64,000 nt of DNA. Origin: Bacillota bacterium. GTDB taxonomy: Bacteria > Bacillota > Clostridia > Christensenellales > Aristaeellaceae. The translations under genes were made by a program, and so were the position numbers. Where the stretch lies: the NCBI GenBank assembly GCA_030057655.1, contig JASGUQ010000040.1:1820-65819 (forward strand). The letters run 5' to 3'. The notes beneath the pieces are model-generated. The model was not told where the DNA came from. It ran no database searches and saw nothing but the letters and a program-made list of their open reading frames with translations. Shown here piece after piece: positions 30,791 to 58,829 of the stretch (position 1 is its first letter; every line of letters starts with the position of its first letter).

Positions 30791-31106
30791 CAAGTCCTTT
30801 TTTGCCCATCTGGCTCTCAAACAACCGCTTGAATCTATGCTTTGTGAAGGGTTTGGGCGGTTTTTTATATGGCGCGGTGGTGTTTCTGTGACGCCAGGCG
30901 GCATCAATCAGTGTTTTTCTGAACAAAGCATCATGGCGTTGACTGCAACAGCCAATCAAATCTGCTTGCACATCTGGCTTAACAGGCTTATTTTCTCAAA
31001 CCGGTCAGGATGAAAATCTGGAAAGTTTTTTTTGATTTAAGGATGCACTTATTGAGCCATTCATGTTACAATGCATAAAAACAAATACAAAGGAGGAGAA
31101 ACCCAT

Positions 31107-32975
31107 ATGAAAAAACGCATCATTTCCCTGATCCTGTCCCTGGTCATGCTGTTGTCGCTTGCTGTTGGCGTCACGGCAGAGACCTTTGAAGGCGAAAGCA
31201 AGGGCTACGGCGGCGTTCTGAAGGTGGCAGTGACCATCGAAGAAGGCAAGCTGACCAATATTGAAGTGCTGGAGTCACATGAGACGGCCGGCATTTCAGA
31301 TCCCGCTTTCGCGAAAGTTCCTGAAGCCATTATCGAACATCAGACCGTAGCGGTGGACACCGTTACCGGCTGCACCCTCTCCAGCAAAGCCCTGATCGAA
31401 GCGGTTACAGCCGCATGGCTTGCTTCCGGCGCTGCCCTGGAAGACATTTCCAAGGAAGTGGTTGTCGAAGCGGGAGAAAAAGAACTTGAAACCAAGACAG
31501 CCGACGTCGTCATCATCGGCGCAGGCGGATCGGGCATGACGGCAGCGGTTGAAGTGCTGCGCGCAGGAGGCAGCGTGCTGCTGGTTGACAAGATGCCCTC
31601 CATTGGAGGCAACACCATCGCTGCTGGCTCTGCCCTCAACGCCGCGGGCAGCGACATTCAAAAGACCGGCACCATGGCCGCTTCCAGCATTGAAGTGATC
31701 GAAGACCTGCTAGCGCTTGAACCCAAGGATGACAACATGAAGCGCTGGCAGGAGAATATCCGCAAGGAACTGGACGCCTACATCGCTTCCGGCGCTACCT
31801 ACGTGTTTGATACAGTGGATCTTCACAAACTGCAAACCTATGTGGGCGGTGACTATGTGGCTAACACGGCCCTGCTGGATGTTTTCGGCGACGGGGCGCC
31901 CGGCGCTCTTGAATACCTGAAAGAACTTGGTATGGAATGGCAGCCAAGAATCACAGCGGCCGTCGGCGCAACCTGGCAGCGCTCCCACCAGCCCGCCCGT
32001 ACCTTTGGCGGCGCTGGCAGCGACTTTGTCCTTCCCCAGTACGAGTTTGTGAAGGCCAATGGCGGCGAAATCGTACTTGAACACAAGGCTGAAGAACTGA
32101 TCATGGAAGACGGCCGTGTTGTGGGCGTCAAGGGCACTGCCAATGACGGAACCCCCTTTGAATACCGCGCCAACAAGAGCGTCATCCTCGCGACAGGCGG
32201 CTTTGGCGCCAATGTCGAGATGCGCCAGAAATACAACAAGTTCTGGGCCACCCTGGACGAGAATGTTCCCACCACCAACCAGCCCTGCGCAACCGGCGAC
32301 GGCATCGGCATGGCGCTGGCTGTCGGCGCCAACCTGGTGGGTATGGAATGGATCCAGATAATCCCCGCCGGCGATGCCAGCCTGTCCGCTTCAGTGGCCA
32401 ATGAAATGTACATCAACGCCGAAGGCAACCGCTTTATCGCTGAAGACGAGCGCCGTGACGTTCTTTCAGGCGCCATCCTTAAACAGACCGATACCTTCTG
32501 CTGGAAGGTGTCCAGCGGCTATTCCGTGGATGATATTCAAGGCGGCATTGACTACAAGGGCAACAAGATCGTTGACCTGGTAACAGCCGGCAAGGGTTAT
32601 CTGGGCGATACGATTGAAGATCTGGCCAATCAGATTGGCGTGGACGCAGCCAACCTGCAGGCCGCAGCCGACGCTTTCAACAAGGCCTTTAAAGGCGAAG
32701 CAGAAGATCCCTTTGGCCGCAAGCTCTTTGAGTATCCCATGGACAAGGGGCCGTACTACGCGACCCGGAGTTATGCCAAGGTTCACCATACCATGGGCGG
32801 CGTTGAAATCAACACCAACTGTGAAGTGCTGGACACCAACGGCAAGCCCATTCCCGGCCTCTTTGCCTGCGGCGAAGTGACCGGCGGCATCCACGGCGGC
32901 AACCGCCTGGGCGGCAACGCGATCGCGGACATCATCGTGTTTGGCCAGATTGCCGGGCAGAATGCTGTGAAATAA
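31107..32975 (+). CDS. secreted FMN-binding-domain / FAD flavoprotein reductase (fumarate/urocanate reductase-like flavocytochrome family)
   Basis: AGGAGG RBS and a signal peptide. FMN_bind domain (GYGGVLKVAVTIEEGKLTNIEVLESHET…VDTVTGCTLSS). FAD fold DVVIIGAGGSGMTAAVE. …HHTMGGVEIN…GLFACGEVTGGIHGGNRLGGNA. Confidence 0.88.
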   Translation: MKKRIISLILSLVMLLSLAVGVTAETFEGESKGYGGVLKVAVTIEEGKLTNIEVLESHETAGISDPAFAKVPEAIIEHQTVAVDTVTGCTLSSKALIEAVTAAWLASGAALEDISKEVVVEAGEKELETKTADVVIIGAGGSGMTAAVEVLRAGGSVLLVDKMPSIGGNTIAAGSALNAAGSDIQKTGTMAASSIEVIEDLLALEPKDDNMKRWQENIRKELDAYIASGATYVFDTVDLHKLQTYVGGDYVANTALLDVFGDGAPGALEYLKELGMEWQPRITAAVGATWQRSHQPARTFGGAGSDFVLPQYEFVKANGGEIVLEHKAEELIMEDGRVVGVKGTANDGTPFEYRANKSVILATGGFGANVEMRQKYNKFWATLDENVPTTNQPCATGDGIGMALAVGANLVGMEWIQIIPAGDASLSASVANEMYINAEGNRFIAEDERRDVLSGAILKQTDTFCWKVSSGYSVDDIQGGIDYKGNKIVDLVTAGKGYLGDTIEDLANQIGVDAANLQAAADAFNKAFKGEAEDPFGRKLFEYPMDKGPYYATRSYAKVHHTMGGVEINTNCEVLDTNGKPIPGLFACGEVTGGIHGGNRLGGNAIADIIVFGQIAGQNAVK

Positions 32976-33334: not shown

Positions 33335-33363
33335 TTGACAAGCCCCCTTTCCTTTGCGATAAT
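33335..33363 (+). promoter_or_regulatory. sigma-A promoter TTGACA-N17-GATAAT
   Basis: Read directly. It lies ~160 nt upstream of the SBP start codon. Confidence 0.5.
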
Positions 33364-33371
33364 GGCATCAG

Positions 33372-33390
33372 TTGGTATGAAATTTACCAA
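33372..33390 (+). promoter_or_regulatory. operator-like inverted repeat TTGGTA-N7-TACCAA
   Basis: Perfect 6-bp arms, centred ~15-20 nt downstream of the -10 hexamer. Confidence 0.3.
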
Positions 33391-33525
33391 ATAGAATGTT
33401 TTTAATGCGCAAGCGCTGTTTGTAGTATATTAGTTTGACACAGGATGTTTCATCCGAGACCCGTATATCGTTCATTGCCCGGGGTGTCCGGGTAAAAATA
33501 TTCAATTTAGAAAGGGAGGAATCAA

Positions 33526-34941
33526 ATGAAAAGGCTTATTACTGTTCTGATCGCCATGGCAATGCTGCTGGGACTCATGTCCGCGGCGGTTGCCGAGGAA
33601 CCCGCCTTTGACCTGAAAGGAAACACCGTCAAAGTGCGTCTGTGGGACAGCCCCAACCCGTATGACGAGGCAACCGATGAGGTGCAAAAGGCTGAATGGC
33701 TGCCCCGTTATGAGGCAATTAAACAAAAATACAACGTCAACTTTGAGTTCTACACCTCTCCCAGCGAGTATGACGACATGCCTGCCGAGTGGATCCAGTC
33801 TGTAACAGCCGGCGCCCCGGTCTGGCACATTACCAACAACCTTTCTGTCATGTGGCTGCCCAACCTGGTGCGCAACAACGCGCTCAGCGACATCTCAGCC
33901 CCCCTGGCGGACATCGTCATGCCTGAGGTCTTTAAGGACATTGGCAAGTTTGGCGATGGCGGCTACGGCTACATCACCGGTTTCCCGGGCCCTGAGCCCC
34001 TGGTTTTCAACCGCAAGATGATCCTGGATGCCGGCATGGCGAAGGATCCTGCCGAAATGTTCATGGAAGGCAAATGGAGCTATGACGACGCCTATGCCTA
34101 CCTGACCGAGCTTCAGTCCAAACTGCCCGAAGGCGACTACGCCTTCTTCATCGATCCCATGTACTGGGGCCTGTACGCGCCGCCGGCCAACGGCGGAGCC
34201 CTGGCCATCCGTCAGGATTATTCCGTGGGCGTTGCGGACGACACCTTTATTGAGTCCATCGAGTTCTTAAAGAAACTGGTGGACGCGGGTGTTGTGCGCC
34301 CTGCCAACGTAACTGAAGACGGCAAGAAAGACTACTGGGGAACGCCGGCCGCTACCTTTGACGTAGGCGTTGAGGTGGCCATGACCCACCGCGCCCTTTG
34401 GCAGATGGGCACCCTGAACTCCAACAACCTGGATTGGGGCATCGTACCCTATCCCTGGGGCTCCGGCGTCAGCTTTGGCACCCCCGGCGATATTGAGACC
34501 ATCGAGGGCTACCATTCCATGTACTATGACGCGGGCATCACCGGATCCGTCCTGGCCGGCGTTGAAGCCGATTTCCCGGGCCTGGAGAAGGATTATGTCA
34601 TCGCGGCGCTCACCAACCTGACCTATGACCTGTTCTTCACAGAGGAAGCCCAGGCTGATATCGCGGCCATGGCTGCCCCCGATTACGAGCCGGAGATGCA
34701 GCTGGATCCCTTCCCCAGCATGGAAGACGCAGAATGCTATCAGTGGATGCGCGAGCGCATCATCTTCAACCCCATCGCGACCATGCAAAACGCCGGCCTG
34801 GGCAAGTCCTACGGCGGTGAAACAACCCTGTACGGCCTGCTGCGCAAGCCCTTTGAGGACAACCTCCCTGTCCGCTCCACCATGGAAGCGGCAGCCCCTG
34901 AGATAGAGTCCAGCCTTCGGGACGCGGGCATCCTGAAATAA
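33526..34941 (+). CDS. extracellular solute-binding protein (family 1, sugar-type)
   Basis: GGGAGG RBS and the signal peptide MKRLITVLIAMAMLLGLMSAAVA. Size and composition are typical of CUT1 SBPs. Confidence 0.85.
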   Translation: MKRLITVLIAMAMLLGLMSAAVAEEPAFDLKGNTVKVRLWDSPNPYDEATDEVQKAEWLPRYEAIKQKYNVNFEFYTSPSEYDDMPAEWIQSVTAGAPVWHITNNLSVMWLPNLVRNNALSDISAPLADIVMPEVFKDIGKFGDGGYGYITGFPGPEPLVFNRKMILDAGMAKDPAEMFMEGKWSYDDAYAYLTELQSKLPEGDYAFFIDPMYWGLYAPPANGGALAIRQDYSVGVADDTFIESIEFLKKLVDAGVVRPANVTEDGKKDYWGTPAATFDVGVEVAMTHRALWQMGTLNSNNLDWGIVPYPWGSGVSFGTPGDIETIEGYHSMYYDAGITGSVLAGVEADFPGLEKDYVIAALTNLTYDLFFTEEAQADIAAMAAPDYEPEMQLDPFPSMEDAECYQWMRERIIFNPIATMQNAGLGKSYGGETTLYGLLRKPFEDNLPVRSTMEAAAPEIESSLRDAGILK

Positions 34942-34949
34942 GCCCCTTT

Positions 34950-34981
34950 CCCGGCACGGGTTCCCCCGTGCCGGGTTTTTC
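34950..34981 (+). terminator. rho-independent terminator or attenuator between the two SBP genes
   Basis: CCCGGCACGG-loop-CCGTGCCGGG followed by TTTTTCT. Confidence 0.75.
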
Positions 34982-35083
34982 TATACCATTTTTGCGTAAA
35001 AACACATCGGAGGAATCTCTCCGTTGTCCAATTTGACGGAAACCCTATTATTTTCAGGTACTTGATAAGGTGGTGAGTTGTTC

Positions 35084-37960
35084 ATGAAAAAATTGCTGCT
35101 GGCCCTTTCGCTGCTGATCTGCCTGTGCCTGTGCATATCGGCCCTGGGGCAAGAGCAAGTATCATACGCAACCTGGCGATTGGGAGTGAGCGAAACCCCG
35201 CCGGGGGTGACGCCCCTTTCCGTTCCCCTGGATGCAGCAGTCGCCCAGGACATGCCCGGCTTTGAACTGCTGCCTGACGGCAGTTTATCCACAGGCGGGC
35301 AGGGTTCCGTCCTGTTTGAAGTGGATGTGCCGGAAGAAGCGCTGTATGAAATACAGGTGGAGTATATGCCGGGATCAGGCGGAGGCAGCGACATCCAGCG
35401 CAGCGTGCTGATCAACGGCTGCCTGCCCTTTATGGAAGCCGAAGGCCTTGTGTTTCATCGTCTGTGGAATGACGCAAACCGGGATTATCAAACCGTGGAA
35501 GGCAACCAGCCCTTCCCTTCCCAGGTTGAAGTTCCGGCATTCCGCACCGTTCGCCTGAGCGATCCCCTGGGATATGTGGTTCGCCCGTTTCTGTTCCAGT
35601 TCAAACAGGGCGTCAACAGCATCGTTTTCCAGTCCATTCAGGACGGGATGATCATCAAAAGCCTTCAGTTGATGCCGCCAGAAAAATTGCCGGAATATCA
35701 GGATTATTTGCAAACAGCTTTGCAGGCAGGCCTGAATTATTCGCAAACCGCGCCGGTTCAAATCGAGGCTGAGGAAGCTGCCGTTAAATCCAGCCCCAGC
35801 CTTTACCCGCTGAACGACCGCACCTCACCCAAAACCACGCCGTACCACCCCAGCTACATCGTGCTCAACAGCATTGGCGGCAGCGCCTGGAACACCCCGG
35901 GAGATTTTATCGCCTGGGATATTGAGGCACCGGAAGAGGGCCTTTACCGCCTTGGGCTCAGGTTTAAGCAAAGCACCCTCAGGGGCATGTATGCCGCCAG
36001 AAGCCTGCGCATCAACGGACAGGTTCCTTTTTCAGAGGCAGAGGAGCTGCGTTTCTACCATGGCAACGGGTTCCAGTTTGGCGTGCTGGGGGATGATAAA
36101 ACCACAGAAGGCGGCTACTGGTTCCACCTGCAAAAAGGCGTCAACCGCATTGAGCTGGCAGTGGCGCTGGGCGACCTGGGCGATGTGCTCAGCCAGATTG
36201 ATGACGCCACCGCGGACTTGAACAGCCTGTACCGGGACATCATCGCCATCACTGGCACCGCCCCTGACGTTAACCGCAACTATCAGCTCTTCCTGCGCGT
36301 GCCTGGGTTGCAGGACAACCTGATCCAGATGAAGGAGCGCCTGACCCAGATCCATGAGGCCTTAAGCGCCCTGATCGGCGAAGGCAACGAGCGGGCCGCG
36401 GGCCTGACGCGCCTGCTCTCCCTGATGGACGACCTGATCGAAGGGGAAGAACAGGTGGTCAAAAACCTGTCCTCCTTTAAAGAAAGCATCACCAGCATGG
36501 GCAAGTCCGTGCTTGACCTGAAGGATTCACCAATGGTGCTGGACTGGCTGATGCTGCTGGGCAAGGATACCCCGGAGATTGATGTCAGCGGAAGCTTTGG
36601 GGACAAAGTGAACCACAGCATCGGGGCTTTCCTGGGCTCTTTCACCAATGATTACAACGTGTCCGATCAGAAGCAAACAGACAGCGACCAGCCGGTCATT
36701 GATGTCTGGGTCTCTTCCGGCCGGGATCAGTTTCAGGTGATCCGCCGGCTGATCAACGAAAGCTTTACCCCGCTGACCGGCATCCGGGTCAATTTGCGCC
36801 TGATCGGAACGGACGTGCTTTTGCCTGCCACCTTCACCGGCACAGGGCCGGAGGTTGCGCTGCAAATCGGCAACACCGCGCCGGTTAATTTCGCCTTCCG
36901 TGGAGCTGCCTTGGATTTAATGGAGTTTTCTGATATCGATACGGTGCTGGAGCACTTTTTGCCGGCTTCCCTTGGCAGCTACCGCTATGAAGGAGGCCTG
37001 TACGCCCTGCCTGATCAGATGAGTTTCCCTGTTCTGTACTACCGGAAGGACATTTTAAATCAGCTGGGCATTGATGTGCCTGAAACCTGGACAGATCTGA
37101 TTGAACTGATTCCTGAACTGCAAAAAGGCAACATGGAGATCTACCTGGACACCAACCCGCCCCAGACCCTGGGCGCGGCTGTGAGCATGGGCAATGCCCG
37201 TCCGGTCAACACCGTGTTCCTGTCCCGCCTGCTGCAAACCGGCGGCCAGATATACAGCCCCGGCGGGGAGCGCTGCCTGTTTGATTCGGAAGAAGCCAAC
37301 CTTGCCTTCCGCTGGTGGACACAGTTTTACACCCAGCACGGGTTCCCCCGGGACATCGACTTTATCACCCGTTTCCGCCTGGGCGAGGTGCCGCTTGGCA
37401 TTGTGGATCTGTCCGCCTACAACGCCCTGGCCGTGTCCGCGCCTGAAATCCGCAACCAGTGGTCCATCGCCAAAGTGCCCGGCACAGAGCTGGAGGACGG
37501 CACCATCAGCCACGCGGTCCCCTGCGTCACAGGCGCCTCCATGATCATCAAAAACATCGCTGAAGCCAGAGGCACCAAAGAAGCCTCCTGGGAATTCTTA
37601 AAATGGTGGACCAGCCAGGACACCCAAAGCAAATACGCCCGGGAAATGGAAGCCATCCTTGGCCCTGCGGGGCGTTACCTGGTCTCCAACCTGGAAAGCT
37701 ACAAGGCCGCCAGCTGGCCGCTTGACATCAAGCAAACCCTGATGGAGGTGCTGGATGACCTGCACGGCGTGCCCGAGGTCCCCGGCGGCTACATCACCGG
37801 CCGTTACCTGAACAACGCTTTCCTGTCGGTGATCACCGCATATGAAAACCCCTCTGATGTGCTGTTTGAAAATGTGGTGCAGATCAACGATGAAATTGCA
37901 GCCAAGCGCGCAGAATTTGGTTTAACGACCGATCAAGCAGAAGGGGGGGAAGCGCAGTGA
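35084..37960 (+). CDS. 958-aa secreted fusion: two tandem beta-sandwich (CBM-like) modules, a helical linker and a C-terminal solute-binding domain
   Basis: Signal peptide MKKLLLALSLLICLCLCISALG. Internal duplication with an exact 200-aa offset. The C-terminal ~450 aa are SBP-like (VIDVWVSSGRDQFQVIRRLINESF…). Confidence 0.8.
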   Translation: MKKLLLALSLLICLCLCISALGQEQVSYATWRLGVSETPPGVTPLSVPLDAAVAQDMPGFELLPDGSLSTGGQGSVLFEVDVPEEALYEIQVEYMPGSGGGSDIQRSVLINGCLPFMEAEGLVFHRLWNDANRDYQTVEGNQPFPSQVEVPAFRTVRLSDPLGYVVRPFLFQFKQGVNSIVFQSIQDGMIIKSLQLMPPEKLPEYQDYLQTALQAGLNYSQTAPVQIEAEEAAVKSSPSLYPLNDRTSPKTTPYHPSYIVLNSIGGSAWNTPGDFIAWDIEAPEEGLYRLGLRFKQSTLRGMYAARSLRINGQVPFSEAEELRFYHGNGFQFGVLGDDKTTEGGYWFHLQKGVNRIELAVALGDLGDVLSQIDDATADLNSLYRDIIAITGTAPDVNRNYQLFLRVPGLQDNLIQMKERLTQIHEALSALIGEGNERAAGLTRLLSLMDDLIEGEEQVVKNLSSFKESITSMGKSVLDLKDSPMVLDWLMLLGKDTPEIDVSGSFGDKVNHSIGAFLGSFTNDYNVSDQKQTDSDQPVIDVWVSSGRDQFQVIRRLINESFTPLTGIRVNLRLIGTDVLLPATFTGTGPEVALQIGNTAPVNFAFRGAALDLMEFSDIDTVLEHFLPASLGSYRYEGGLYALPDQMSFPVLYYRKDILNQLGIDVPETWTDLIELIPELQKGNMEIYLDTNPPQTLGAAVSMGNARPVNTVFLSRLLQTGGQIYSPGGERCLFDSEEANLAFRWWTQFYTQHGFPRDIDFITRFRLGEVPLGIVDLSAYNALAVSAPEIRNQWSIAKVPGTELEDGTISHAVPCVTGASMIIKNIAEARGTKEASWEFLKWWTSQDTQSKYAREMEAILGPAGRYLVSNLESYKAASWPLDIKQTLMEVLDDLHGVPEVPGGYITGRYLNNAFLSVITAYENPSDVLFENVVQINDEIAAKRAEFGLTTDQAEGGEAQ

Positions 37961-38892
37961 GCAAACCAATGAAATCAACAGTAGGCAAGATGAGCGCCTG
38001 GGATTTCCGCCGTCAGGAAATAATCAGAAGCAGACAGCTCTATGCCATGATTGCGCCGTATTTCCTGCTGTTTACCGCCTTCACGGTGATTCCCGTGCTG
38101 GTGTCCATCGTGTACAGCTTTACGCAATTCAATGTGCTGCAGCCTGCGAAATTCATCGGCCTTGAAAACTACACCAGGCTGTTTCTGGACGATCCTGTTT
38201 TCCTGAAAGCCATTCAAAACACCCTGATCATGGCCATCATCATCGGCCCCATCGGTTACATGATGTCCTTTATCATGGCCTGGCTGTTAAATGAATTGCC
38301 CGCCAAACTCCGCACCCTGCTGACGGTAATCTTTTACGCGCCCAGCATTTCAGGCAACGCCTATGTCGTGTTTCGCCAGCTTTTCTCGGGGGACTCCTAC
38401 GGCTTCGTCAACGCCCAGCTGCTTAAGATGGGCCTGATCTACAAGCCCATCCTCTGGCTGGCCGATGAAAAATACATGATGGCGATCGTGATCTTTGTTT
38501 CCCTCTGGATGAGCCTTGGCGTCGGCTTCCTGTCCTTCATCGCCGGCTTGCAGGGAGTGGACAAATCACAATACGAAGCCGCCGAGGTGGACGGGGTCAA
38601 AAACCGCTGGCAGGAACTGTGGTTCATCACCCTTCCCAACATGCGGCCTCAGCTGATGTTCGGCGCGGTCATGTCTGTGACCAACGCGCTGGCCGTGGCC
38701 GATGTCACCGTGGCTTTGACCGGTTTCCCCTCGCCCAATTACGCGACCCACACCATCATCAACCACTTGAACGACTACGGCATCATCCGCATGGAGATGG
38801 GCTACGCGAGCGCCATTGCGGTCTTGCTCTTCTTCTCCATGCTCTTCATCAACCGTTTTGTGCAAAAGGTGCTCAGAAAGGTAGGAACCTGA
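37957..38892 (+). CDS. ABC sugar permease (MalF/LplB-like)
   Basis: Six TM helices and the EAA loop YEAAEVDGVKNRWQELWFITLPNMRP. It overlaps the upstream stop by 4 nt. Confidence 0.9.
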   Translation: MSKPMKSTVGKMSAWDFRRQEIIRSRQLYAMIAPYFLLFTAFTVIPVLVSIVYSFTQFNVLQPAKFIGLENYTRLFLDDPVFLKAIQNTLIMAIIIGPIGYMMSFIMAWLLNELPAKLRTLLTVIFYAPSISGNAYVVFRQLFSGDSYGFVNAQLLKMGLIYKPILWLADEKYMMAIVIFVSLWMSLGVGFLSFIAGLQGVDKSQYEAAEVDGVKNRWQELWFITLPNMRPQLMFGAVMSVTNALAVADVTVALTGFPSPNYATHTIINHLNDYGIIRMEMGYASAIAVLLFFSMLFINRFVQKVLRKVGT

Positions 38893-39848
38893 TGAACAGC
38901 ACTCATTTGACAAAAAAGCAGCAAAAGCAGCTGGACAAAGCCCGGCGCAAATCCATGAAGGGCGTCAAGATCAAGCACAAATCCAAGTTCGCAAAAGCCC
39001 TCACCAAGGGCCGCAGCAACCGTAGCGTTAAAGGCAGCCTGACGCTGCTGGCCTGTCTGTTCGTGTTTTCCCTGATCATGCTCTTCCCGGTTGTTTTCCT
39101 GGTCAGCAACGCCTTTAAGCCGATCAACGAGCTGTTTATTTTCCCGCCCAAGCTCTTTGTGATCCAGCCCACGCTGGACAACTTCGCTGATCTGTTTGAC
39201 CTGTTGAGCGATTCGCTGATCCCCTTCTCCCGCTACCTGTTTAACACCCTGTTCATTGTGCTGGCAGGTTCGGTGGGGCATATCCTGATTTCCTCCATGG
39301 CAGCCTTCCCCTTGGCGAAATTCCGTTTTCCGGGGTCCAAGCTGCTGTCCAACATCGTCACCCTGTCCCTGATGTTCACCGCGGCGGTCACCGCCGTGCC
39401 CAACTACATCATCATGAGCAAGCTGGGCTTTGTGGACACCTACTGGTCCATCATCCTGCCCGCCTTTTCCATGTCCCTGGGCTTGTTCCTGATGAAAAAC
39501 TTCATGGAGCAGGTGCCGGACGCGCTGATCGACGCTGCCCAGATTGACGGGTCAACGTATTTCACCATGCTCTGGCGCATTGTGATGCCGGCGGTCAAGC
39601 CTGCCTGGATTACCTTGTTCATCGTGTCTTTCCAGACGCTTTGGGGCAACACGGCAGGCAACTTCATTTACACTGAGAACATGAAGCCGCTGCCGGCCAT
39701 GCTCACCCAGATCGCCAGTTCAGGCGTGGCCAGGGCAGGGGTGGTATCGGCCACTTCGCTGATCATGTTCATCGTACCGGTTGTTGTGTTCATCATTTCA
39801 CAATCCAACGTGCTGGAGACCATGTCCACCTCCGGCATCAAAGAGTAA
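38892..39848 (+). CDS. ABC sugar permease (MalG/LplC-like) with a basic N-terminal tail
   Basis: The ATG overlaps the upstream TGA (ATGA-type junction). EAA loop DAAQIDGSTYFTMLWRIVMPAVKP. The track ORF start at 38619 lies in another gene's frame region and encodes His/Arg-rich junk. Confidence 0.9.
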   Translation: MNSTHLTKKQQKQLDKARRKSMKGVKIKHKSKFAKALTKGRSNRSVKGSLTLLACLFVFSLIMLFPVVFLVSNAFKPINELFIFPPKLFVIQPTLDNFADLFDLLSDSLIPFSRYLFNTLFIVLAGSVGHILISSMAAFPLAKFRFPGSKLLSNIVTLSLMFTAAVTAVPNYIIMSKLGFVDTYWSIILPAFSMSLGLFLMKNFMEQVPDALIDAAQIDGSTYFTMLWRIVMPAVKPAWITLFIVSFQTLWGNTAGNFIYTENMKPLPAMLTQIASSGVARAGVVSATSLIMFIVPVVVFIISQSNVLETMSTSGIKE

Positions 39849-39862
39849 GGAGGGGTGTTGAC

Positions 39863-41311
39863 ATGAAACATTTGCGTCGCCTCCTGCCCCTTTTCCTGGT
39901 GTTCCTGCTCATCATGCCGGCCAGCGCCGATGTTGCGCTCGCCCCCGGCAGCTACCTCTATTCACCCTATCAGGATGCGGTAGCATCAGTCCCCGCGTAT
40001 GAACACCATCGTTCCATCTACTTAAAAGACCTGCGCGGGGCCGAGTCCCTGGCCAACCTGAAGGATGCCTGGGTGGCGGATGACCGGATCTTCGTCCTGC
40101 GGGACGGCGAGCTTCTGATCCTGGACTTGAATTTTAATTTGGTCCGGTCGATCAGAACATACCTGGACAAGGAAGGCAAGGAACACCGCCTGAGCGGCGG
40201 CAACGGCATCGCCGTGTGCAAGGACGGGGATTATTACATCGCCCGCAGCATACAGGGCGACATCCTGCATTTCTCATCAGACCACAAACTGGTCCGGGTA
40301 ATCGGGCGTCCCCGCATCCCCGGCTTTGAAAATGTGGCCTACAAGCCCATTAAGCTGGCCGTAGACGAGGCAAAGCGCATCTACGTGGTGGCTCAGGGCA
40401 TGTATGAAGGCATTGTCGAACTGAGCCCGGACGGGGAATTCTCCAGGTTTTACGGCGTCAACCGCGTCAAGTTCTCCTTTGCGCAGTTCTTCTGGCGCAT
40501 TTTCGCAACCAGAGAACAGCTGCAGCGGCAGCAGCTTTGGCTGCCCACCGACTTTACGAACCTGTGCATCGACAGCAGGGGGTTCATCTTCGCCACCATC
40601 CAGGACAGCCAGGGTGAGATCATCAAGCGCCTGAACGCCAAGGGTGAAAACATCCTGCGCCCGATTGAAGGCAACTACCCTGAAGGAGACGTGCTGTTTA
40701 ACCCGTCCGGCGTCGGAATCCCAACCGGCCCATCCGCGTTCATCGCGGTGGACAGCAACCCATACGGCGTGTTCATCGCGCTGGATCAAAAACGAAACCG
40801 CATTTTCGCCTACAACGAGGATGGCAGGCCGCTGTACATCATCGGCGGTCCGGGACAGCATGAAGGCCTGTTCCGAAACCCTGTGGACCTGGACTTTGTG
40901 GGCGAATACATCATGGTGCTGGATGCCCTTTCCCAATCCATCGACATCTACGCGCCAACGGCCTACGGCCAAGCCATTCATAACGCGGTGCGTCAGCAAT
41001 ATGTCTTTAATTATGAGGAAGCTGCCAAGCATTGGCGGCGTACCCTGGACTTTAACCACAACTTTACCCTGGCCTATTCCGGAATTGGCAGGAGCCTGCT
41101 TCGTGCCGGCCAGTATGATCAGGCCATGGAGTATTTGCGCATGGGTTCCGACCGCGAATACTACTCAAAGGCATTTGAGAAAGTACGGGACCGGGAATTG
41201 AAAATCTGGCTGATGCCGGTGCTGCTGGGCTTGATCGTCCTCTCGGCCTTGGTAAAGATCTTCAAGTGGCAACGTAAAAAGAGAAGTGGAAAGGGGGAAG
41301 CGCACACATGA
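39863..41311 (+). CDS. signal-peptide protein with NHL-like beta-propeller repeats, a TPR-like helical region and a C-terminal TM anchor
   Basis: MKHLRRLLPLFLVFLLIMPASA. Repeats such as …RIYVVAQGMYEGIVELSPDG… and …RIFAYNEDGRPLYIIGGPGQHEGLFRNPVDLDFVGEYIMVLDALSQSIDIY. Then …AYSGIGRSLLRAGQYDQAMEYL…, and finally IWLMPVLLGLIVLSALVKIF followed by a KKRSGK tail. Confidence 0.7.
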   Translation: MKHLRRLLPLFLVFLLIMPASADVALAPGSYLYSPYQDAVASVPAYEHHRSIYLKDLRGAESLANLKDAWVADDRIFVLRDGELLILDLNFNLVRSIRTYLDKEGKEHRLSGGNGIAVCKDGDYYIARSIQGDILHFSSDHKLVRVIGRPRIPGFENVAYKPIKLAVDEAKRIYVVAQGMYEGIVELSPDGEFSRFYGVNRVKFSFAQFFWRIFATREQLQRQQLWLPTDFTNLCIDSRGFIFATIQDSQGEIIKRLNAKGENILRPIEGNYPEGDVLFNPSGVGIPTGPSAFIAVDSNPYGVFIALDQKRNRIFAYNEDGRPLYIIGGPGQHEGLFRNPVDLDFVGEYIMVLDALSQSIDIYAPTAYGQAIHNAVRQQYVFNYEEAAKHWRRTLDFNHNFTLAYSGIGRSLLRAGQYDQAMEYLRMGSDREYYSKAFEKVRDRELKIWLMPVLLGLIVLSALVKIFKWQRKKRSGKGEAHT

Positions 41312-41997
41312 GTGAGGTGCATACCAACAATAAAACCCGGGCAGATTCAGCCTTAATGAATTTGCTTGGACGCTTCAAAAACGATTTTTGGTCCTTCCCG
41401 CTTTATATCCTGGGCCGGCCTTTTAAGGGCTTTGACGAAATGAAGTACGAAGGACGGGGCAGCCTGGGGTTTGCCATTGTCATCTTTTTCCTCAGCGCCC
41501 TGATGAACATCGTGGAGTTCGTCTACTGCGGTTTCCTGGTCAACTACAACAATCCTTACCAGATCAACAGCTTGTTTTTGGCCCTGGTCACCATCTTCCC
41601 CGTGCTCCTTTTCATGGTAGCCAACTGGTCTGTCACCACCCTGCTGGAAGGCAAGGGACGAATGAAGGATATTTTCATGGTGATGATGTACGCCATGTTC
41701 CCCTTCCTGCTGCTGCGCCTGATCAGCCTGGTGCTCACCAATGTGCTCACCCTGGATGAAATGATGATTTCCAGCACGCTGACGGGGATTGGCTCTGTGC
41801 TTTTCTTCGTCTACACCTTCATCGGGCTGGTGGTGGTGCACGAGTACGGGCTTGGCGCCGGCGTTGGTTCCATCCTGCTGACCCTAATAGCGATGATGAT
41901 CATTGTGTTCATCCTGATGCTCTTCTTTACCCTGGTGGCTGACCTGGTTGATTTTGTCACCGTGTTCGGCCGCGAACTGATGCTGAAATACTTTTAG
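41308..41997 (+). CDS. Yip1-domain polytopic membrane protein
   Basis: 229 aa with five predicted TM helices after a short cytosolic N-terminus. Architecture and size match bacterial YIP1-family annotations. It has an ATGA overlap with the upstream gene. Confidence 0.65.
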   Translation: MSEVHTNNKTRADSALMNLLGRFKNDFWSFPLYILGRPFKGFDEMKYEGRGSLGFAIVIFFLSALMNIVEFVYCGFLVNYNNPYQINSLFLALVTIFPVLLFMVANWSVTTLLEGKGRMKDIFMVMMYAMFPFLLLRLISLVLTNVLTLDEMMISSTLTGIGSVLFFVYTFIGLVVVHEYGLGAGVGSILLTLIAMMIIVFILMLFFTLVADLVDFVTVFGRELMLKYF

Positions 41998-42015
41998 AAA
42001 GGAGAGGAGAAACAG

Positions 42016-44475
42016 ATGAAACGAAGCTTATTCGCCCTCTCCTGTCTCATGATACTGCTCATGCTGGTAAGCCCGGCGCTGGCCAGCGATGCAGTGCTTC
42101 AGATAGAGAAAGACGGCGCAAAACTGCAGCTGGATCCCAGCAACATGCTGATCAGCTTCACGCCCCCGGGCAGCGACACAGCGTATGAAGCCTGGGTCAA
42201 GCAATCTGATTCCGGCAGCCGCGCCATGCAAAACCTTCAAAAATCCCTCCTGTCCGTGCAATACATTACAAACGCCCGCACAGGCACCAGCTTGTCCATG
42301 GACAGCTATTCCATGTGCGTGGACCTGGGAGAGGCCAAGTACGAAGAGCTGGAAAACGGTTTCCGCATCCGCCTGTCCATTGGCCCAAACGAGCTGGTCA
42401 TTGACGACCTGCCCAAAGCCATCCCGGTCAGCACCTATAACGAACGCCTGCGGCCTCACTGGAGCGAGCGCAACGACAAGCTGTTTAAAAGCAACTACCG
42501 CGTTGTGCCGCGCGAGGAAGGCGAGAGCATGTTTGTCCGGGTCAAGGACGACCTGGGCCGCTTGGCCATCTCTCAACTGTACAAATTGTTCTTTGAAACG
42601 GGCGAATACACCCTGGAAGACCGGGACAAGGACAACGAGGCCTATGGCTATGTGGTGGAATACGTCAACCCCAAGATCATCCTTGCGATGGACTTCCAAA
42701 TCGACCAGGGGGATCTGCTGGTTTCAGTGCCCCTGTCTGAATTGTCCAACACAAAAGACAATGACGTCGTATCTTTGGACCTGCTGCCCTATTTCCTGAG
42801 TGAAACTCAAGGGAAAAAAGGCTATCTCTTTGTGCCCGACGGCTCCGGCGCGCTGATCAATTTTGACAACCAGCGTTTGGGCATCGCGGCTTATTCTGCC
42901 CCGGTCTATGGTGAAGACCTCCTGATTCGGGCAGATGAGTACCGCCCATCCTCCTCATCATCGATTTCTTTGCCTGTCTACGGGATCAAAACCGAAGAGG
43001 GGGCTGCGATGTGCATCATCGAAGAGGGGGCGGAGCTTGCCAACATCACAGCGGCTGTTTCCGGCCACAGCGACGAGTTTAACCGGATCTACTCCACCTT
43101 TACTTTGCGCGACATCGAGCGGGTGGCCATGGGCGGCAACAAAACAGTCACCACCCCCCGGTACGCGGAGGATGTCTACCAAGGCACGCTGAAGCTTCGC
43201 TATAAGTTTATGCCGGGCGCAGACAAGGGCTATGCCGACATGGCCTTTGCTTACAAGAACTACCTGAAAGATCAGGGCGTTTTGAAAGCGCAGGAGAACT
43301 GGGCCGAACACGCGCCCCTTCAAATTGAGCTGATCGGCGCTGTCCAAAAGCAGAAGTTCTTCCTGGGCATCCCCTATCAATCCACTGTGACAGCCACAAG
43401 CATTGAACAGGCAAACAGCATCTACGACAAGATCAAGCAATCTGGCGCCCAAAACGTCCAGCTGCTGTACTCCGGTTTGTTCCGCCAGGGCGTCAAGCAC
43501 GCGAACCTGAACCCGGCCAGGCTGGAAAATGGCATCGGCAGCGCTACGCAGCTTAAGGAGCTGTCCCAGAAAATGAAAGCGGCGGGAGACAGCCTGTACC
43601 CTGTTGCGTATCTGGGACGGGTCTACAGCGTCCGTGGTTTTTCCACATTCAGCAATGCGGCCAGGCTGCACGACGGCAGCGTTGCCAGGGTGTTTGAGCC
43701 ATTTGAACCCCAGCTTCGGGGAGTCAGCGTAAAGAACAGCGCTTACATCTCGCCGGCCTACCTGCCTGAATACGCGCAGGGCGTACAAAACAGCCTGTCT
43801 GAATACGGCGCATCCGGGCTTGCGGTTCATGACCTGGGGAACACCCTGGTGGGCACTTACAAGCGGCGGGGCCACATCTCCCCCATCCATTCCGTCCCTT
43901 ATTATCAACAAAGCCTGGATACCCTGGCGAAAAACCCGCTGATGCTGGACACCCCAAACGCCTACGCATTGCCCTACGCGAGCAGCGTCAGCAACCTGCC
44001 CACACAATCCAGCGACTACAAACTGTTTAATTTCTCGGTGCCCTTCCTGCAGTTGGTGTATGACGGCATGTTACCCTATGCGGGCACATCCTGGAACCTG
44101 AGGCCGCAGCAGCTCCCCCAGCTGCTTCTGCTGGAAGCCATTGAAAGCAGAACGGCGCCAAGGTTTACCCTGACCTATGAGGAACCCACCATCTTCCATG
44201 ATACCGGGGACCTGGACTTTACAGGCTATTTTGCCACCTGGTATCAGGACAGCCTGCCCCATGTCCTTGAAGCCTGGAAGGCCTATGATGATTTCTATCA
44301 GCAAGTCAAGGGCGCCAGGATCACGGGGCATGAGATCCTGGGGGATACGGTTCGCGCGACCCATTATGACAATGGCAAGACCGTGCTGGTGAACTATGGC
44401 GAAAGAAGGAAAAGCGCCCTGGGCGCTTCGATACCCGGCTTCAGCTATGTCATCCAAGGAGGTGAAAACCCATGA
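42016..44475 (+). CDS. secreted DUF5696-like protein (819 aa, function unknown)
   Basis: Signal peptide MKRSLFALSCLMILLMLVSPALA. I assign it to DUF5696 from memory of this gene context and from segments such as KGYLFVPDGSGALINFD. I recognised no catalytic motif. Confidence 0.6.
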   Translation: MKRSLFALSCLMILLMLVSPALASDAVLQIEKDGAKLQLDPSNMLISFTPPGSDTAYEAWVKQSDSGSRAMQNLQKSLLSVQYITNARTGTSLSMDSYSMCVDLGEAKYEELENGFRIRLSIGPNELVIDDLPKAIPVSTYNERLRPHWSERNDKLFKSNYRVVPREEGESMFVRVKDDLGRLAISQLYKLFFETGEYTLEDRDKDNEAYGYVVEYVNPKIILAMDFQIDQGDLLVSVPLSELSNTKDNDVVSLDLLPYFLSETQGKKGYLFVPDGSGALINFDNQRLGIAAYSAPVYGEDLLIRADEYRPSSSSSISLPVYGIKTEEGAAMCIIEEGAELANITAAVSGHSDEFNRIYSTFTLRDIERVAMGGNKTVTTPRYAEDVYQGTLKLRYKFMPGADKGYADMAFAYKNYLKDQGVLKAQENWAEHAPLQIELIGAVQKQKFFLGIPYQSTVTATSIEQANSIYDKIKQSGAQNVQLLYSGLFRQGVKHANLNPARLENGIGSATQLKELSQKMKAAGDSLYPVAYLGRVYSVRGFSTFSNAARLHDGSVARVFEPFEPQLRGVSVKNSAYISPAYLPEYAQGVQNSLSEYGASGLAVHDLGNTLVGTYKRRGHISPIHSVPYYQQSLDTLAKNPLMLDTPNAYALPYASSVSNLPTQSSDYKLFNFSVPFLQLVYDGMLPYAGTSWNLRPQQLPQLLLLEAIESRTAPRFTLTYEEPTIFHDTGDLDFTGYFATWYQDSLPHVLEAWKAYDDFYQQVKGARITGHEILGDTVRATHYDNGKTVLVNYGERRKSALGASIPGFSYVIQGGENP

Positions 44476-45374
44476 AAACCGCCAGAAGAGGCTGGTATTA
44501 CCGGCTAAGTTTTCCTAAAAAAACTGCGCTGTGGGGCTTCATTTTCCTGTTGCCCTGGCTGCTGGGGTTTCTGCTGCTCTTTTTGGTGCCCATGGTACAG
44601 ACTTTTCAGTTCAGCTTTAACAACCTGGAGATCATCCCCACCGGCGGCATCAAATTGACGCCAGTCGGGCTTGAGAATTACCGCCACGCCCTGCTGGTGG
44701 ACCCCAACTTTAACCCCGCCCTGGTCAATACCCTGATTGAGGTTTTCCTCTATACCCCGCTGATCATCATTTTCTCCTTGCTGTGCGCTATTTTGCTCAA
44801 CGGCAAGTTCCGGGGCCGGGCAGTGGCGCGCGCCATCTTCTTCATTCCCATCATCATGGCCACAGGCCTGATGATGCAGCGGGTCACCAACCTGTCCGGT
44901 CAAATGCAGGGCGCGGCCGAAAGCAGCAATGTGTACGGCGCCGGTTTCATTGCCGAATTGCTGTTCAACCTCGGCATCGGCAAACAGCTGGTGCAGTACC
45001 TGCTGGATATGGTCAACCGCATCTTTGAGATCGTCTCCCTTTCCGGTATACAAATTCTTATCTTCCTGTCCGCCTTGCAGGCCATTTCCCCTTCCCTGTA
45101 CGAGGTGGCAAAGATTGAAGGCGCCACTGCTTATGAAACCTTCTGGAAGGTTACGGTGGTCATGGTGTCACCCATGATCCTCACCTGTACCATCTACACC
45201 ATGAGCGATCTCTTTGCCCGAAGCGACATCATGACCCTGGTCTACAACCTGGCCTTCCGTCAGTCACGCTTTGGCCTGAGCACCGCCATGAGCAGCATTT
45301 ACCTGCTGCTGTCCGTCCTCAGCATTGGCTTGATGGCCCTGCTGATTAGAAAGGTGGTGTTCTATTATGACTAA
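44472..45374 (+). CDS. ABC sugar permease (second pair, MalF-like)
   Basis: Six TM helices and the EAA loop YEVAKIEGATAYETFWKVTVVMVSP. It has an ATGA overlap with the DUF5696 gene. Confidence 0.9.
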   Translation: MKTARRGWYYRLSFPKKTALWGFIFLLPWLLGFLLLFLVPMVQTFQFSFNNLEIIPTGGIKLTPVGLENYRHALLVDPNFNPALVNTLIEVFLYTPLIIIFSLLCAILLNGKFRGRAVARAIFFIPIIMATGLMMQRVTNLSGQMQGAAESSNVYGAGFIAELLFNLGIGKQLVQYLLDMVNRIFEIVSLSGIQILIFLSALQAISPSLYEVAKIEGATAYETFWKVTVVMVSPMILTCTIYTMSDLFARSDIMTLVYNLAFRQSRFGLSTAMSSIYLLLSVLSIGLMALLIRKVVFYYD

Positions 45375-46395
45375 TCGGGCTTTGACGCAAAAAACTCCTC
45401 TGGACAAGATACGCCTCAGAGAAAGGCGCAAGATCAAAGCGAAAAACAAAGCACGTTCTTTTGTGGTGAACCTTTTTCGCTACGCCCTCATTGTCTGCCT
45501 GAGCTACCTGATCCTGGCCCCCATCCTGATCAACATTTCCACAGCCTTTACCTATCCCCAGGACCTGGGATTGTCCTCCTCCGTTTGGATTCCCAACCGC
45601 TTTTCTCTGGAGAATTGGCATGTGGCGATGCTGACCATTAACTACAAGGAAGCGCTGCCCTATACCATTGTGCAAACAGCGATCATCACCCTGCTGCAGA
45701 CCCTTTGCGCGATGCTGGCAGCCTATTCCTTCGCACGGCTCAAATTCCCCGGCCGCGGCCTGCTCTTTGCCCTGGTGGTCTTTACCATCATCGTGCCGCC
45801 CCAAACATTTATGCTTCCCCAGTATGTCTATTTCCGGAACTTTGATTTTCTGGGCATTTTTACAGCCCTGACCGGAAAACCGCTCAACCTTCTGGGCAAT
45901 CCCGCTTCCCTGGTGCTGATCAATGTGCTGGGGCAGGGTTTAAAAGGCGGTTTGTTCGTCTACATCTTCAGGCAGACTTACAGAGGCCTGCCCAAGGCGC
46001 TTGAAGAAGCGGCCTATGTGGATGGCGCCGGTTTCATGCGCACCTTCTGGGGCATTGTGGTGCCCTCCTCCTCCTCCGGTCTGCTGACCGTGCTGGTTCT
46101 GTCCTTTGTGTGGAACTGGAACGACGCCTATTACATCCGCCTCTTTGACGCCAACAACACCCGGAACCTGATGCTCGCCTATACAAGGGCCGTCGGCTCG
46201 GTGGACGAAGCCATCTCAAGAATCAGCACACAGGTGCCCGCCCACTACGCTTTCCTGCAAAAGAACCCCATTTATGAAGCTGCCATCGGTAAAACCGCGG
46301 CCTTGCTGGTCTTCCTGCCCCTGGTCATCATGTACTTGTTTGTCCAGCGCCGGTTTGTGCAGGGCGTGGAGCGCAGCGGTATCGCAGGAGACTGA
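45367..46395 (+). CDS. ABC sugar permease (second pair, MalG-like)
   Basis: EAA loop EEAAYVDGAGFMRTFWGIVVPSS. It overlaps the upstream gene by 8 nt. Confidence 0.9.
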   Translation: MTNRALTQKTPLDKIRLRERRKIKAKNKARSFVVNLFRYALIVCLSYLILAPILINISTAFTYPQDLGLSSSVWIPNRFSLENWHVAMLTINYKEALPYTIVQTAIITLLQTLCAMLAAYSFARLKFPGRGLLFALVVFTIIVPPQTFMLPQYVYFRNFDFLGIFTALTGKPLNLLGNPASLVLINVLGQGLKGGLFVYIFRQTYRGLPKALEEAAYVDGAGFMRTFWGIVVPSSSSGLLTVLVLSFVWNWNDAYYIRLFDANNTRNLMLAYTRAVGSVDEAISRISTQVPAHYAFLQKNPIYEAAIGKTAALLVFLPLVIMYLFVQRRFVQGVERSGIAGD

Positions 46396-46519: not shown

Positions 46520-46546
46520 AAGTCCCGGCTGGTTAGCCAGGACTTA
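46520..46546. terminator. imperfect hairpin between the convergent ABC locus and dnaJ
   Basis: AAGTCC..TGG-TTAG-CCA-GGACTT. No clean U-tract on either strand. Confidence 0.35.
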
Positions 46547-57856: not shown

Positions 57857-57883
57857 TTGTTTACCTCCATGATTTATTCACAA

Positions 57884-58816
57884 TCAGCCCTTTACAGAGC
57901 CAATCATTACGCCTTTGACAAAATGCTTTTCAACAAAGGGGAAGATGATGAGCAAGGGCAAGGTGCCCGCGACGACAACAATGTATTTAACGGATTCCGA
58001 AATGCGGAGCAATTCCACCACAGCGGTCGCGTTCTCGATGTTTTCGCCGGTCCTCGCGCTTTGCATGGCCACCTCAGCCTTCAAAAGGATATCGCGAAGT
58101 ACCAGCTGCAAAGGGTACATCTCTTCTTTGGTAATATAGAGCATGGCGTTCCAGTAGGACAGCCAGTGTCCCACCGCGTAGAACAGGCCGATGACCGCGA
58201 TGATGGCTGTGGAATTGGGCAGGACGATCCTGATGAAAAAGCCGATGTTGTTGCAGCCGTCGATATGGGCGGCATCCTGCAGTTCATCCGGAATGGATGT
58301 GGTGAGGAAGGTGCGGGTGATGATCAGGTTCCAGGTGGAGATGGCGCCGGGCAGCACCAAAGCGCCGATGGTGTTGAGCAGCTTCAGATCTTTAACAAGC
58401 AGGTAGGTGGGGATCATGCCGCCGCCGAAGAACATGGTCACCAGCACCATCCAGTTGAGAGGTTTTCTGAGCGCAAACGTCTTGCGGGAGAGGACAAAAG
58501 CGCCAGTCATTGTGAGGACAAGATTGATAAGGGTGCCAATGGTCGTGTAGACAGCCGTGTTGGCGTATCCGCGCCAGAGGGCTTCATTCTCCATGACACG
58601 CTTGAACCCCTCGTAGTTGGAACCTGTCGGCAAAAGCAGCACGCGCCCGGCGAAGACCTCGGAAGGCGAGGAGATGGCCGAGATAAAGACCAGGTACATC
58701 GGGTAAAAGAAGATCAGCGTCAAAACCAGCAAAATCAGCCCATTGATCAGGTCAAAACGCCAGTCGCCCTGAATTTTCGACTGCTTGATCCAGGATTTCT
58801 TCTTCATCTTGTCCAT
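57884..58816 (-). CDS. ABC sugar permease (LplC-like)
   Basis: EAA loop QDAAHIDGCNNIGFFIRIVLPNS; six TM helices. Confidence 0.9.
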   Translation of the reverse strand: MDKMKKKSWIKQSKIQGDWRFDLINGLILLVLTLIFFYPMYLVFISAISSPSEVFAGRVLLLPTGSNYEGFKRVMENEALWRGYANTAVYTTIGTLINLVLTMTGAFVLSRKTFALRKPLNWMVLVTMFFGGGMIPTYLLVKDLKLLNTIGALVLPGAISTWNLIITRTFLTTSIPDELQDAAHIDGCNNIGFFIRIVLPNSTAIIAVIGLFYAVGHWLSYWNAMLYITKEEMYPLQLVLRDILLKAEVAMQSARTGENIENATAVVELLRISESVKYIVVVAGTLPLLIIFPFVEKHFVKGVMIGSVKG

Positions 58817-58829
58817 CAGCCCGCCTCCC

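Follow-up and report, generated by a model that had tools for sequence, protein, structure and literature searches.

The 64-kb window analyzed here (64,000 nucleotides of contig JASGUQ010000040.1 from a bacterium of the Aristaeellaceae; positions below are those of the window) contains a block of nine same-strand open reading frames (ORFs) at positions 33526–46395, all on the plus strand. They encode two solute-binding proteins (SBPs), two pairs of ATP-binding cassette (ABC) transporter permeases and, between the permease pairs, three other envelope proteins. ORF calls and translations, together with Pfam and NCBIfam searches (and profile searches where a single sequence was too weak), agree with the nine co-directional genes, the coordinates and the family assignments of a preliminary description of this DNA, which had been made from the sequence alone. 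The first gene, SBP1 (33526–34941), encodes a 471-aa divergent CUT1-type SBP. The ORF of the second, SBP2L (35084–37960), opens with a TTG at 35078, and the ATG at 35084 is the likely start of a 958-aa protein with two CBM35-like domains, a helical bundle and an SBP domain. The first permease pair consists of PermA1 (37957–38892; UgpA/MalF-type, EAA loop EAAEVDG) and PermB1 (38892–39848; UgpE/MalG-type, loop DAAQIDG), and the second of PermA2 (44472–45374; UgpA-type, loop EVAKIEG) and PermB2 (45367–46395; MalG/UgpE-type, loop EAAYVDG), all four with BPD_transp_1 domains. Between the pairs lie genes for an extracytoplasmic 482-aa protein with an NHL β-propeller, a TPR region and a C-terminal transmembrane helix at aa 448–466 (39863–41311), a 229-aa Yip1 protein (PF04893; 41308–41997) and an 819-aa secreted or tethered DUF5696 protein (PF18952; 42016–44475) of three domains with a GH129/GH101-like (β/α)8 fold, GH denoting glycoside hydrolase. 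Five start/stop overlaps are read directly in the sequence, as first reported (GTGA, TGATG, ATGA, ATGA and ATGACTAA), and the intergenic distances at the other two junctions are 14 and 18 nt. Hydropathy agrees with the topology first proposed, placing N-terminal signals on SBP1, SBP2L, the NHL/TPR protein and the DUF5696 protein.

This arrangement is conserved far beyond chance. One genome per GTDB species was scanned for the DUF5696 motif [LMI]F[VI]PDGSG[AS]L, which at least 596 GTDB species genomes carry, and the best 80 loci were kept from the at least 596 confirmed DUF5696 relatives. They span Clostridia, Oscillospiraceae, Lachnospiraceae, Paenibacillus, Cohnella, Amphibacillus, Lederbergia, Gracilibacillus, Saccharibacillus and one Treponema. 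Gene order was scored by tblastn with the nine window proteins. The identical nine-gene order is present in 57 of the 80 loci and the same order without a detectable SBP1 in another 15, so that 72 of 80 keep it as eight or nine genes; seven of the other eight loci end at a contig end, and the eighth is the Treponema locus. The partners of DUF5696 occupy their expected positions in nearly every locus whose flank is long enough to evaluate: SBP2L in 71/72, PermA1 in 72/73, PermB1 in 77/78, NHL/TPR in 77/78, Yip1 in 78/79, PermA2, directly after DUF5696, in 77/77 and PermB2 in 74/74, in the same order from Clostridia to Paenibacillus. The first check put forward in the preliminary description, conserved synteny with the permeases, thus comes out in its favor. 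Clustering of flanking ORFs places a divergent SBP1-type lipoprotein gene upstream of SBP2L in 50 loci (median distance 387 nt), and the number of loci with such a gene upstream is 50–57 depending on method (clustering or tblastn). The DUF5696 family itself is large, with 6,783 clusters (at 50% identity) among 1.84 billion representative proteins at E ≤ 1e-3 and 4,012 at E ≤ 1e-30.

Three genomes carry two cassettes each (loci L019/L058, L029/L054 and L053/L074), and in all three the whole set of nine genes is duplicated. Identity between paralogs within a genome runs from 31–33% for SBP1, the fastest-evolving part, and 37–42% for DUF5696 up to 65–77% for PermB1 and PermA1; PermA1 is the most conserved part at 69–77%. 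In 25 of 77 loci, moreover, one ORF of about 710 aa encodes NHL/TPR and Yip1 as a fusion. The preliminary description regarded the three envelope proteins of unassigned role as parts of one machine rather than passengers, and this judgment is borne out by the synteny, the whole-cassette paralogs and the fusions, which support their being integral, by these genomic signs, to a conserved transport cassette.

The NHL/TPR protein as a single sequence gives sub-threshold Pfam TPR matches only. A profile of 39 orthologs (A2) matches the six-bladed PknD-derived ‘Pizza’ NHL propellers in the PDB at E = 4.5e-40, with 4–6 propeller stretches matched, and also TRIM NHL domains and consensus TPR proteins, which upholds the earlier propeller/TPR label. 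The Yip1 protein scores 40.8 bits against the PF04893 cut-off of 28.6 and has five hydrophobic helices. Examples of the NHL/TPR–Yip1 fusion are L081–L083 (7851–9983 in L081), L001 (a close relative of the window locus), L084 and 22 other loci, and the same fusion occurs in a gut Lachnospiraceae protein cluster of 706 members; its scatter across clades suggests that fusion or fission has probably taken place repeatedly. A precedent for a Yip1-family protein working with an ABC transporter is YknW, the assembly modulator of the YknXYZ ABC exporter in Bacillus (PMC4887032). The initial view that none of the three proteins has an assigned bacterial function must therefore be narrowed: it stands for DUF5696, of which (or of PF18952) our literature searches found no mention, and not for Yip1. 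Literature searches on combinations of Yip1, NHL, ABC and Paenibacillus found nothing relevant, and the description of the system as previously undescribed is in line with these results.

The hairpin 3′ of SBP1 (34950–34983, plus strand) is as strong as first described, with a stem at 34950–34975 of 11 bp, 10 of them G-C, followed by TTTTT. Among related loci a terminator-like hairpin follows SBP1 in 10 of 70 and PermB2 in 8 of 77. At the four other junctions tested it is found in 0 of 72–79 loci each after SBP2L, PermB1 and DUF5696 and in 1 of 79 after Yip1. We rejected the SBP1-trailing hairpin as a conserved feature because of its presence in only 10 of 70 loci. Upstream of the block, a promoter-like site at 33335–33363 on the plus strand (TTGACA-17 nt-GATAAT with an upstream TG, 11 of 12 consensus positions) is a consensus match only, from a region not enriched in such sites (7, with 7.6 expected). 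PermB2 and the convergent dnaJ gene are separated by 175 nt, within which a terminator-like hairpin at 46520–46545, scored on the minus strand as following dnaJ, may end the transcripts of both.

These features bear on whether two unrelated, ordinary CUT1 importers have come to lie next to one another by chance, with passenger envelope genes between them and no joint machine. The hairpin and intergenic gap do set SBP1 apart, and the two permease pairs are 19–25% identical, no closer to each other than to another CUT1 locus in the window. Against this, the order is kept from Clostridia to Bacilli and all nine genes are duplicated together; junctions overlap, and the four others tested have a hairpin in at most 1 of 72–79 loci; many loci have an NHL/TPR–Yip1 fusion, and DUF5696 directly precedes PermA2 in every one of the 77 evaluable loci. 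We regard chance adjacency as very improbable, the synteny census having largely refuted it. Recent internal duplication as the source of the two permease pairs was also rejected, since their identity is just 19–25%.

The four permeases score above or near the Pfam cut-off for BPD_transp_1, give NCBIfam matches of the UgpA, UgpE and MalG types, and have EAA coupling loops that are intact in the translations. Such a pair with EAA loops and an extracytoplasmic SBP_bac_1/8 protein are, along with a cognate ATPase of the MalK/MsmX type, the hallmarks of a CUT1 importer. The canonical CUT1 layout has one SBP and one permease pair; here there are two SBPs, two pairs and three extra genes in a conserved order, and the layout is non-canonical, just as the preliminary description had it. 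Its remark that the block lacks an ATPase gene extends to the whole window, where a scan found no ORF with both LSGGQ and a Walker A motif. As a peculiarity of this locus it carries little weight, because Firmicute CUT1 importers share MsmX-type ATPases and the absence of the ATPase gene from the operon is normal (PMC7658222; PMC5730181). By analogy, both importers of the block presumably draw their energy in trans from a shared MsmX-type ATPase whose gene lies elsewhere. A conserved ATPase gene in the flanks of the relatives was considered and rejected (5 scattered matches among 751 ORFs). We also note a second CUT1-type locus at 56234–59741 on the minus strand, with genes for a 540-aa SBP (SBP_bac_1/8) and a 303-aa permease of the BPD_transp_1 family, plus a 310-aa ORF related to PermB1 by blastp; here too an ATPase gene is missing, as would be expected if a shared ATPase is encoded elsewhere in the genome.

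The two SBPs are quite different proteins. The window copy of SBP1 has no Pfam match, and its profile (A3) gives weak matches to sugar SBPs in the PDB (E = 2e-4); its homolog in the gut Lachnospiraceae locus L081 matches SBP_bac_1, and in Bacilli it is a lipoprotein. SBP1 evolves fastest of all the parts and is the likely specificity determinant. In SBP2L the SBP_bac_1/8 match is confined to aa 567–856 of 958. An AlphaFold2 model (pLDDT 87) shows β-sandwiches at about aa 47–199 and 227–362, a four-helix bundle at 366–482 and the SBP domain at 540–946. All Foldseek matches fall on this last domain, which resembles MalE/UgpB-type sugar SBPs (target-normalized TM-score about 0.8), and the N-terminal domains have none. 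In the alignment of the N-terminal part (A6), Pfam CBM_35 is matched in 16 of 34 orthologs (best E 2.8e-7), and the alignment finds the CBM35 region of 5x7g in the PDB (E = 2.3e-5). SBP2L has an N-terminal membrane anchor and a mean column identity of 55%, even across loci for different glycans, which suggests that its ligand may be generic.

The assignment of the DUF5696 protein to its family is secure: the window protein matches PF18952 at E = 2.9e-156 (522 bits against a cut-off of 25.6) over model positions 2–612 of 612. Its AlphaFold2 model (pLDDT 89.8, pTM 0.88) finds GH129 enzymes first in the PDB by Foldseek, ZgGH129 (5opq) at 1.1e-29 and NagBb (5wzp) at 1.6e-24 (target-normalized TM-score about 0.7), followed by GH101, GH31 and GH36. 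The relationship is visible in sequence as well, the family profile finding GH129 chains at 1.8e-7 with hmmsearch and the family alignment matching NagBb with 98% probability in hhalign, at about 12–19% identity to GH129. The three-domain architecture of GH129, an N-terminal β-sandwich, a (β/α)8 barrel and a C-terminal β-sandwich, is thus present together with homology. The full NagBb gene was recovered from gut metagenome contigs by a scan with a 143-aa NagBb fragment (L099:1844–3748), and it has W398, D435 and E478 at their published numbers. D435 and E478 are what we take to be the catalytic nucleophile Asp and the acid/base Glu of GH129. D435 aligns four residues off DUF5696 D606, in a low-confidence stretch, and D606 is kept in 101 of 119 close relatives versus 73 of 139 representative clusters. 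The E478 segment TSSEEVSD falls in a gap of DUF5696 beside the conserved Asn648 (122/139), so no counterpart of the acid/base residue is found there. The third residue, W398, is a stacking platform in NagBb (PMC8106489). By these comparisons DUF5696 is a remote GH129 homolog and not a GH129 member, and the refuting outcome named in the preliminary description, that it would belong to an already characterized CAZy family, did not arise.

DUF5696 has invariant positions of its own. Among the 139 representative clusters G278 (in PDGSG), P676 and E710 are conserved in all, N694 and N793 in 138, D672 in 129 and D614 in 123. The window protein has Thr614 and Asn672 where the family mostly has Asp, and if those Asp residues are functional, its activity may be unlike that of most family members. 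Among Bacilli, the DUF5696 protein is a lipoprotein, with a lipobox-like motif in 45 of the 80 loci; with SBP1 a lipoprotein as well and SBP2L anchored, all the external parts are therefore held at the membrane.

Is DUF5696 then an active surface glycosidase, the founder of a new GH129-related family that trims captured glycans at the transporter mouth? Its three-domain match to GH129, GH101 and GH31, the homology to NagBb, the conserved polar residues after barrel strands (D672, N694, D614 and E710) and a fast evolution that co-varies with substrate type all speak for this. On the other side, D606, the Asp nearest the nucleophile position, is kept in barely more than half of the representative clusters, the acid/base segment of NagBb is in a gap next to Asn648, and the window protein lacks both D614 and D672. 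A single fold at xylan, mannan, N-glycan and pectin loci also argues against a single linkage specificity. Taken together, these points leave an active glycosidase rather unlikely, although it deserves more weight than any other competing explanation considered here. With the GH129 catalytic pair not conserved, hydrolysis by DUF5696, the ‘processing’ of the initial proposal, appears doubtful. DUF5696 occurs at loci for chemically unrelated glycans, yet diverges fast with substrate type, which binding or docking would fit at least as well as hydrolysis, and it sits in a gene position usually held by an SBP. We lean toward a binding or docking role, or non-canonical catalysis, over a GH129-type hydrolase.

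The relatives tie the cassette to glycan catabolism. When DUF5696 proteins were grouped at ≥50% identity and compared with their flanking genes, the clades tracked flanking regulators and sets of glycoside hydrolases of xylan, mannan, N-glycan-like and pectin type. Twenty-seven Bacilli loci mostly have an AraC-type response regulator upstream, with GH10 and GH43 genes downstream; 11 Paenibacillus loci have LacI and in most cases GH26 and a GH2 β-mannosidase; four further Paenibacillus loci have LacI with GH20, GH38 or GH29; and 18 Lachnospiraceae loci have varied mixes of GH38, GH130, GH35, GH29 and GH2. AraC-type response regulators stand upstream in 26 loci overall. In an abundant gut Lachnospiraceae locus the order is GH3, cassette, GH38, GH130, GH35, GH20, and one gut Lachnospiraceae cassette protein occurs on 914 contigs. 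More distant loci have GH43 with CBM6/35, GH28 with GH36, or GHL10 genes. The first downstream hydrolase gene often runs in the same direction and begins 0–150 nt past PermB2. Of the 55 exo-acting hydrolases in the flanks (GH43, GH2, GH130, GH35, GH29, GH38, GH20), none has an N-terminal hydrophobic segment, versus 62 of 67 SBP controls; these enzymes therefore look cytoplasmic, and this points to import of oligosaccharides. The same check for a signal peptide on flanking GH10 and GH26 proteins flagged 12 of 28, with uncertain ORF starts. The earlier suggestion of glycan capture, processing and uptake thus fares well for uptake, which the LacI/AraC regulators and the cytoplasmic hydrolases of the relatives back, and poorly for processing by DUF5696.

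Some flanks carry other genes. At five Paenibacillus and Saccharibacillus loci (L040, L043, L044, L054 and L076) the first gene past PermB2 specifies a protein of 566 aa whose C-terminal part has ricin-B lectin domains and whose N-terminal part gives no Pfam match, and in four of the five it is followed by a large AraC-type regulator gene and a further SBP–permease set. At the metagenomic locus L088 (14492–18710) two GHL10/DUF4015 proteins and a DUF4127 protein are encoded after the cassette and an NAGPA-family phosphodiester glycosidase before it; this enzyme set differs from those of the other loci and is uncharacterized.

The neighbors of the window copy are housekeeping genes (mfd, purR, the alanine dehydrogenase gene ald, a secreted flavoprotein gene and dnaJ/dnaK/hrcA). 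No hydrolase or regulator gene adjoins the block, and the window’s own DUF5696 clade has no conserved flanking hydrolases, so that the companion genes expected of a gram-positive polysaccharide utilization locus (PUL) are absent here and present in most relatives. The gene directly upstream (31071–32975) encodes a flavoprotein of the extracellular flavin reductase/fumarate reductase type, with a signal peptide and the domains FMN_bind and FAD_binding_2; it does not recur beside the cassette in the 80 related loci.

Such surroundings raise the question of whether the cassette might remodel, recycle or export a glycopolymer of the cell’s own envelope instead of importing nutrients. The window copy and its closest relatives do lack conserved flanking catabolic hydrolases, yet upstream of two of these, L001 and L003, there is a LacI-type regulator. 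The conservation of SBP2L and of its CBM35-like part is high whatever hydrolases adjoin, so the protein could recognize an unchanging ligand, for example a wall polymer, and NHL/TPR modules are common in envelope proteins. However, EAA-loop permeases with SBPs are importers, and most relatives have cytoplasmic catabolic hydrolases encoded 0–150 nt downstream and LacI/AraC regulators upstream; an envelope role is, in our view, improbable. A sensory role for part of the cassette, with SBP2L and PermA1/PermB1, or NHL/TPR–Yip1, reporting polymer to adjacent regulators, would account for the strong conservation of SBP2L and PermA1/PermB1 irrespective of substrate, and both the resemblance of the NHL propeller to the PknD sensor domain and the 26 upstream AraC-type response regulators are in its favor. 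Still, none of the nine proteins has a signaling domain, the coupling loops of PermA1 and PermB1 are intact and no regulator lies near the window copy, all of which makes such a sensor very unlikely.

Layout variants among the more distant loci are informative about how the cassette may be built. In the Anaerotaenia torta locus and two other distant loci (L084, L089 and L090) an SBP1-type gene lies at the other end of the block, after PermB2, and the SBP1 profile matches the Anaerotaenia protein with 97% probability (hhalign). A Saccharofermentanales locus (L085, 4450–14488) is without SBP2L, PermA1 and PermB1 and consists of SBP1-like (95.6% probability), NHL, Yip1, DUF5696, PermA2 and PermB2 genes. 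In this locus we also observe an LPXTG/Big_2 surface protein gene ahead of the SBP1-like gene, and GH28 and GH36 genes flank it. The Treponema locus (L086, 10001–14429) is reduced to DUF5696, PermA2 and PermB2, with no SBP gene nearby. Residual pairwise-identity correlations are 0.53–0.62 among SBP2L, PermA1 and PermB1 and 0.35–0.60 among SBP1, DUF5696 and NHL; they separate two gene groups in a manner that is suggestive only, being confounded by rate classes, shared ancestry and non-independent pairs. The reduced and rearranged layouts and these correlations suggest a core plus a second importer, in which SBP1, NHL/TPR–Yip1, DUF5696 and PermA2/PermB2 would form an ancestral core (module I) and SBP2L with PermA1/PermB1 an add-on present in most loci (module II). 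By this grouping SBP1 would pair with PermA2/PermB2, and SBP2L with PermA1/PermB1.

On balance we think it probable that the block is an instance of a glycan-import platform that is conserved and widespread in Firmicutes and made of two CUT1 modules and a membrane-tethered accessory set. In this platform, oligosaccharides released from a polymer would be captured at the membrane surface by the fast-evolving, substrate-specific SBP1 and DUF5696; the NHL/TPR–Yip1 protein would hold these two beside the permeases, with which they would assemble physically; the sugars would enter through the two translocators; and cytoplasmic exo-glycosidases, encoded next door in most relatives, would degrade them. 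The window copy would likewise take up a glycan. Several points weigh against this reading, besides the confounding of the residual correlations. The best 80 loci are those most like the query, and distant relatives have reduced layouts. The window copy, flanked by ald, the flavoprotein gene and the dnaK operon, has no adjoining hydrolase or regulator. The CBM35-like label of the SBP2L sandwiches is weak, with a best E of about 1e-7, and the high conservation of SBP2L and PermA1/PermB1 across substrates is a poor fit with a simple substrate-specific second importer.

A more specific form of the import platform is less likely than not, and we offer it tentatively. DUF5696 and NHL/TPR–Yip1 might form an extracytoplasmic adaptor docked on PermA2/PermB2, with DUF5696 as a glycosidase-derived, largely non-catalytic receptor that feeds long glycan chains to the permeases; with the second, CBM-bearing importer included, the whole would parallel, in Gram-positive cells, the SusC/D ‘utilisome’ of Bacteroidota and serve as a reusable capture-and-import core for PULs. 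DUF5696 would then act beside a classical SBP or, in the Treponema variant, in its place.

In gut and soil, Firmicutes such as Lachnospiraceae, Clostridia and Paenibacillus have a major part in breaking down plant and host glycans. Firmicute uptake systems are usually treated as one SBP plus two permeases; here a nine-gene core is reused, and duplicated per glycan, and it contains three protein families to which no role in import has been assigned. Should these parts make up a single complex, it would represent a new ABC importer architecture, assign a function to DUF5696 and to the Yip1/NHL proteins of bacteria, and supply a genomic marker to predict Gram-positive glycan-utilization loci. The paralogous xylan-type and mannan-type cassettes of culturable Paenibacillus make these ideas directly testable.

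Comparison with known systems places the cassette within a familiar kind, ABC glycan import in PUL-like loci, in which the two-importer architecture and the accessory complex are new. It resembles the CUT1 importers that share MsmX/MsmK, such as AraNPQ and the pectin-related systems of B. subtilis, in its SBP_bac_1-type SBPs, its MalF/MalG-like pairs with EAA loops and its operon without an ATPase gene (PMC7658222; PMC5730181). It differs from them in combining two SBPs with two permease pairs within a single conserved block, in the two CBM35-like domains and helical stalk borne by one SBP, and in the NHL/TPR, Yip1 and DUF5696 genes embedded between the pairs. Like gram-positive PULs, the cassette in relatives lies between a LacI/AraC regulator gene and hydrolase genes for one glycan class; such PULs are, however, loosely any combination of transporter, hydrolase and regulator, whereas the cassette is a fixed nine-gene transport core reused for different glycans. 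DUF5696 shares its three-domain fold and sequence-profile homology with GH129 (the α-N-acetylgalactosaminidase NagBb and the Zobellia 3,6-anhydro-D-galactosidase) and GH101. Unlike in GH129, the catalytic Asp/Glu positions are not conserved, there are separate invariants (PDGSG, P676, N694, E710 and N793), and the gene always directly precedes an ABC permease pair. Bacillus YknWXYZ is alike in pairing the gene of a polytopic Yip1-family protein with those of an ABC transporter (PMC4887032). YknYZ is a MacB-type exporter with a membrane-fusion protein, whereas the cassette partners are type I importers, and the cassette Yip1 protein differs from YknW in being linked or fused to an extracellular NHL/TPR domain. 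The Sus-like systems of Bacteroidota combine SusC/D with surface glycan-binding proteins and surface enzymes, and the alginate importer of Sphingomonas A1 has two binding proteins. The cassette has no homology to either, and it operates at the single membrane of Gram-positive cells with ABC rather than TonB energy; the likeness is by functional analogy only, that of a reusable multi-protein capture-import core, duplicated per substrate, with substrate-specific enzymes and regulators around it.

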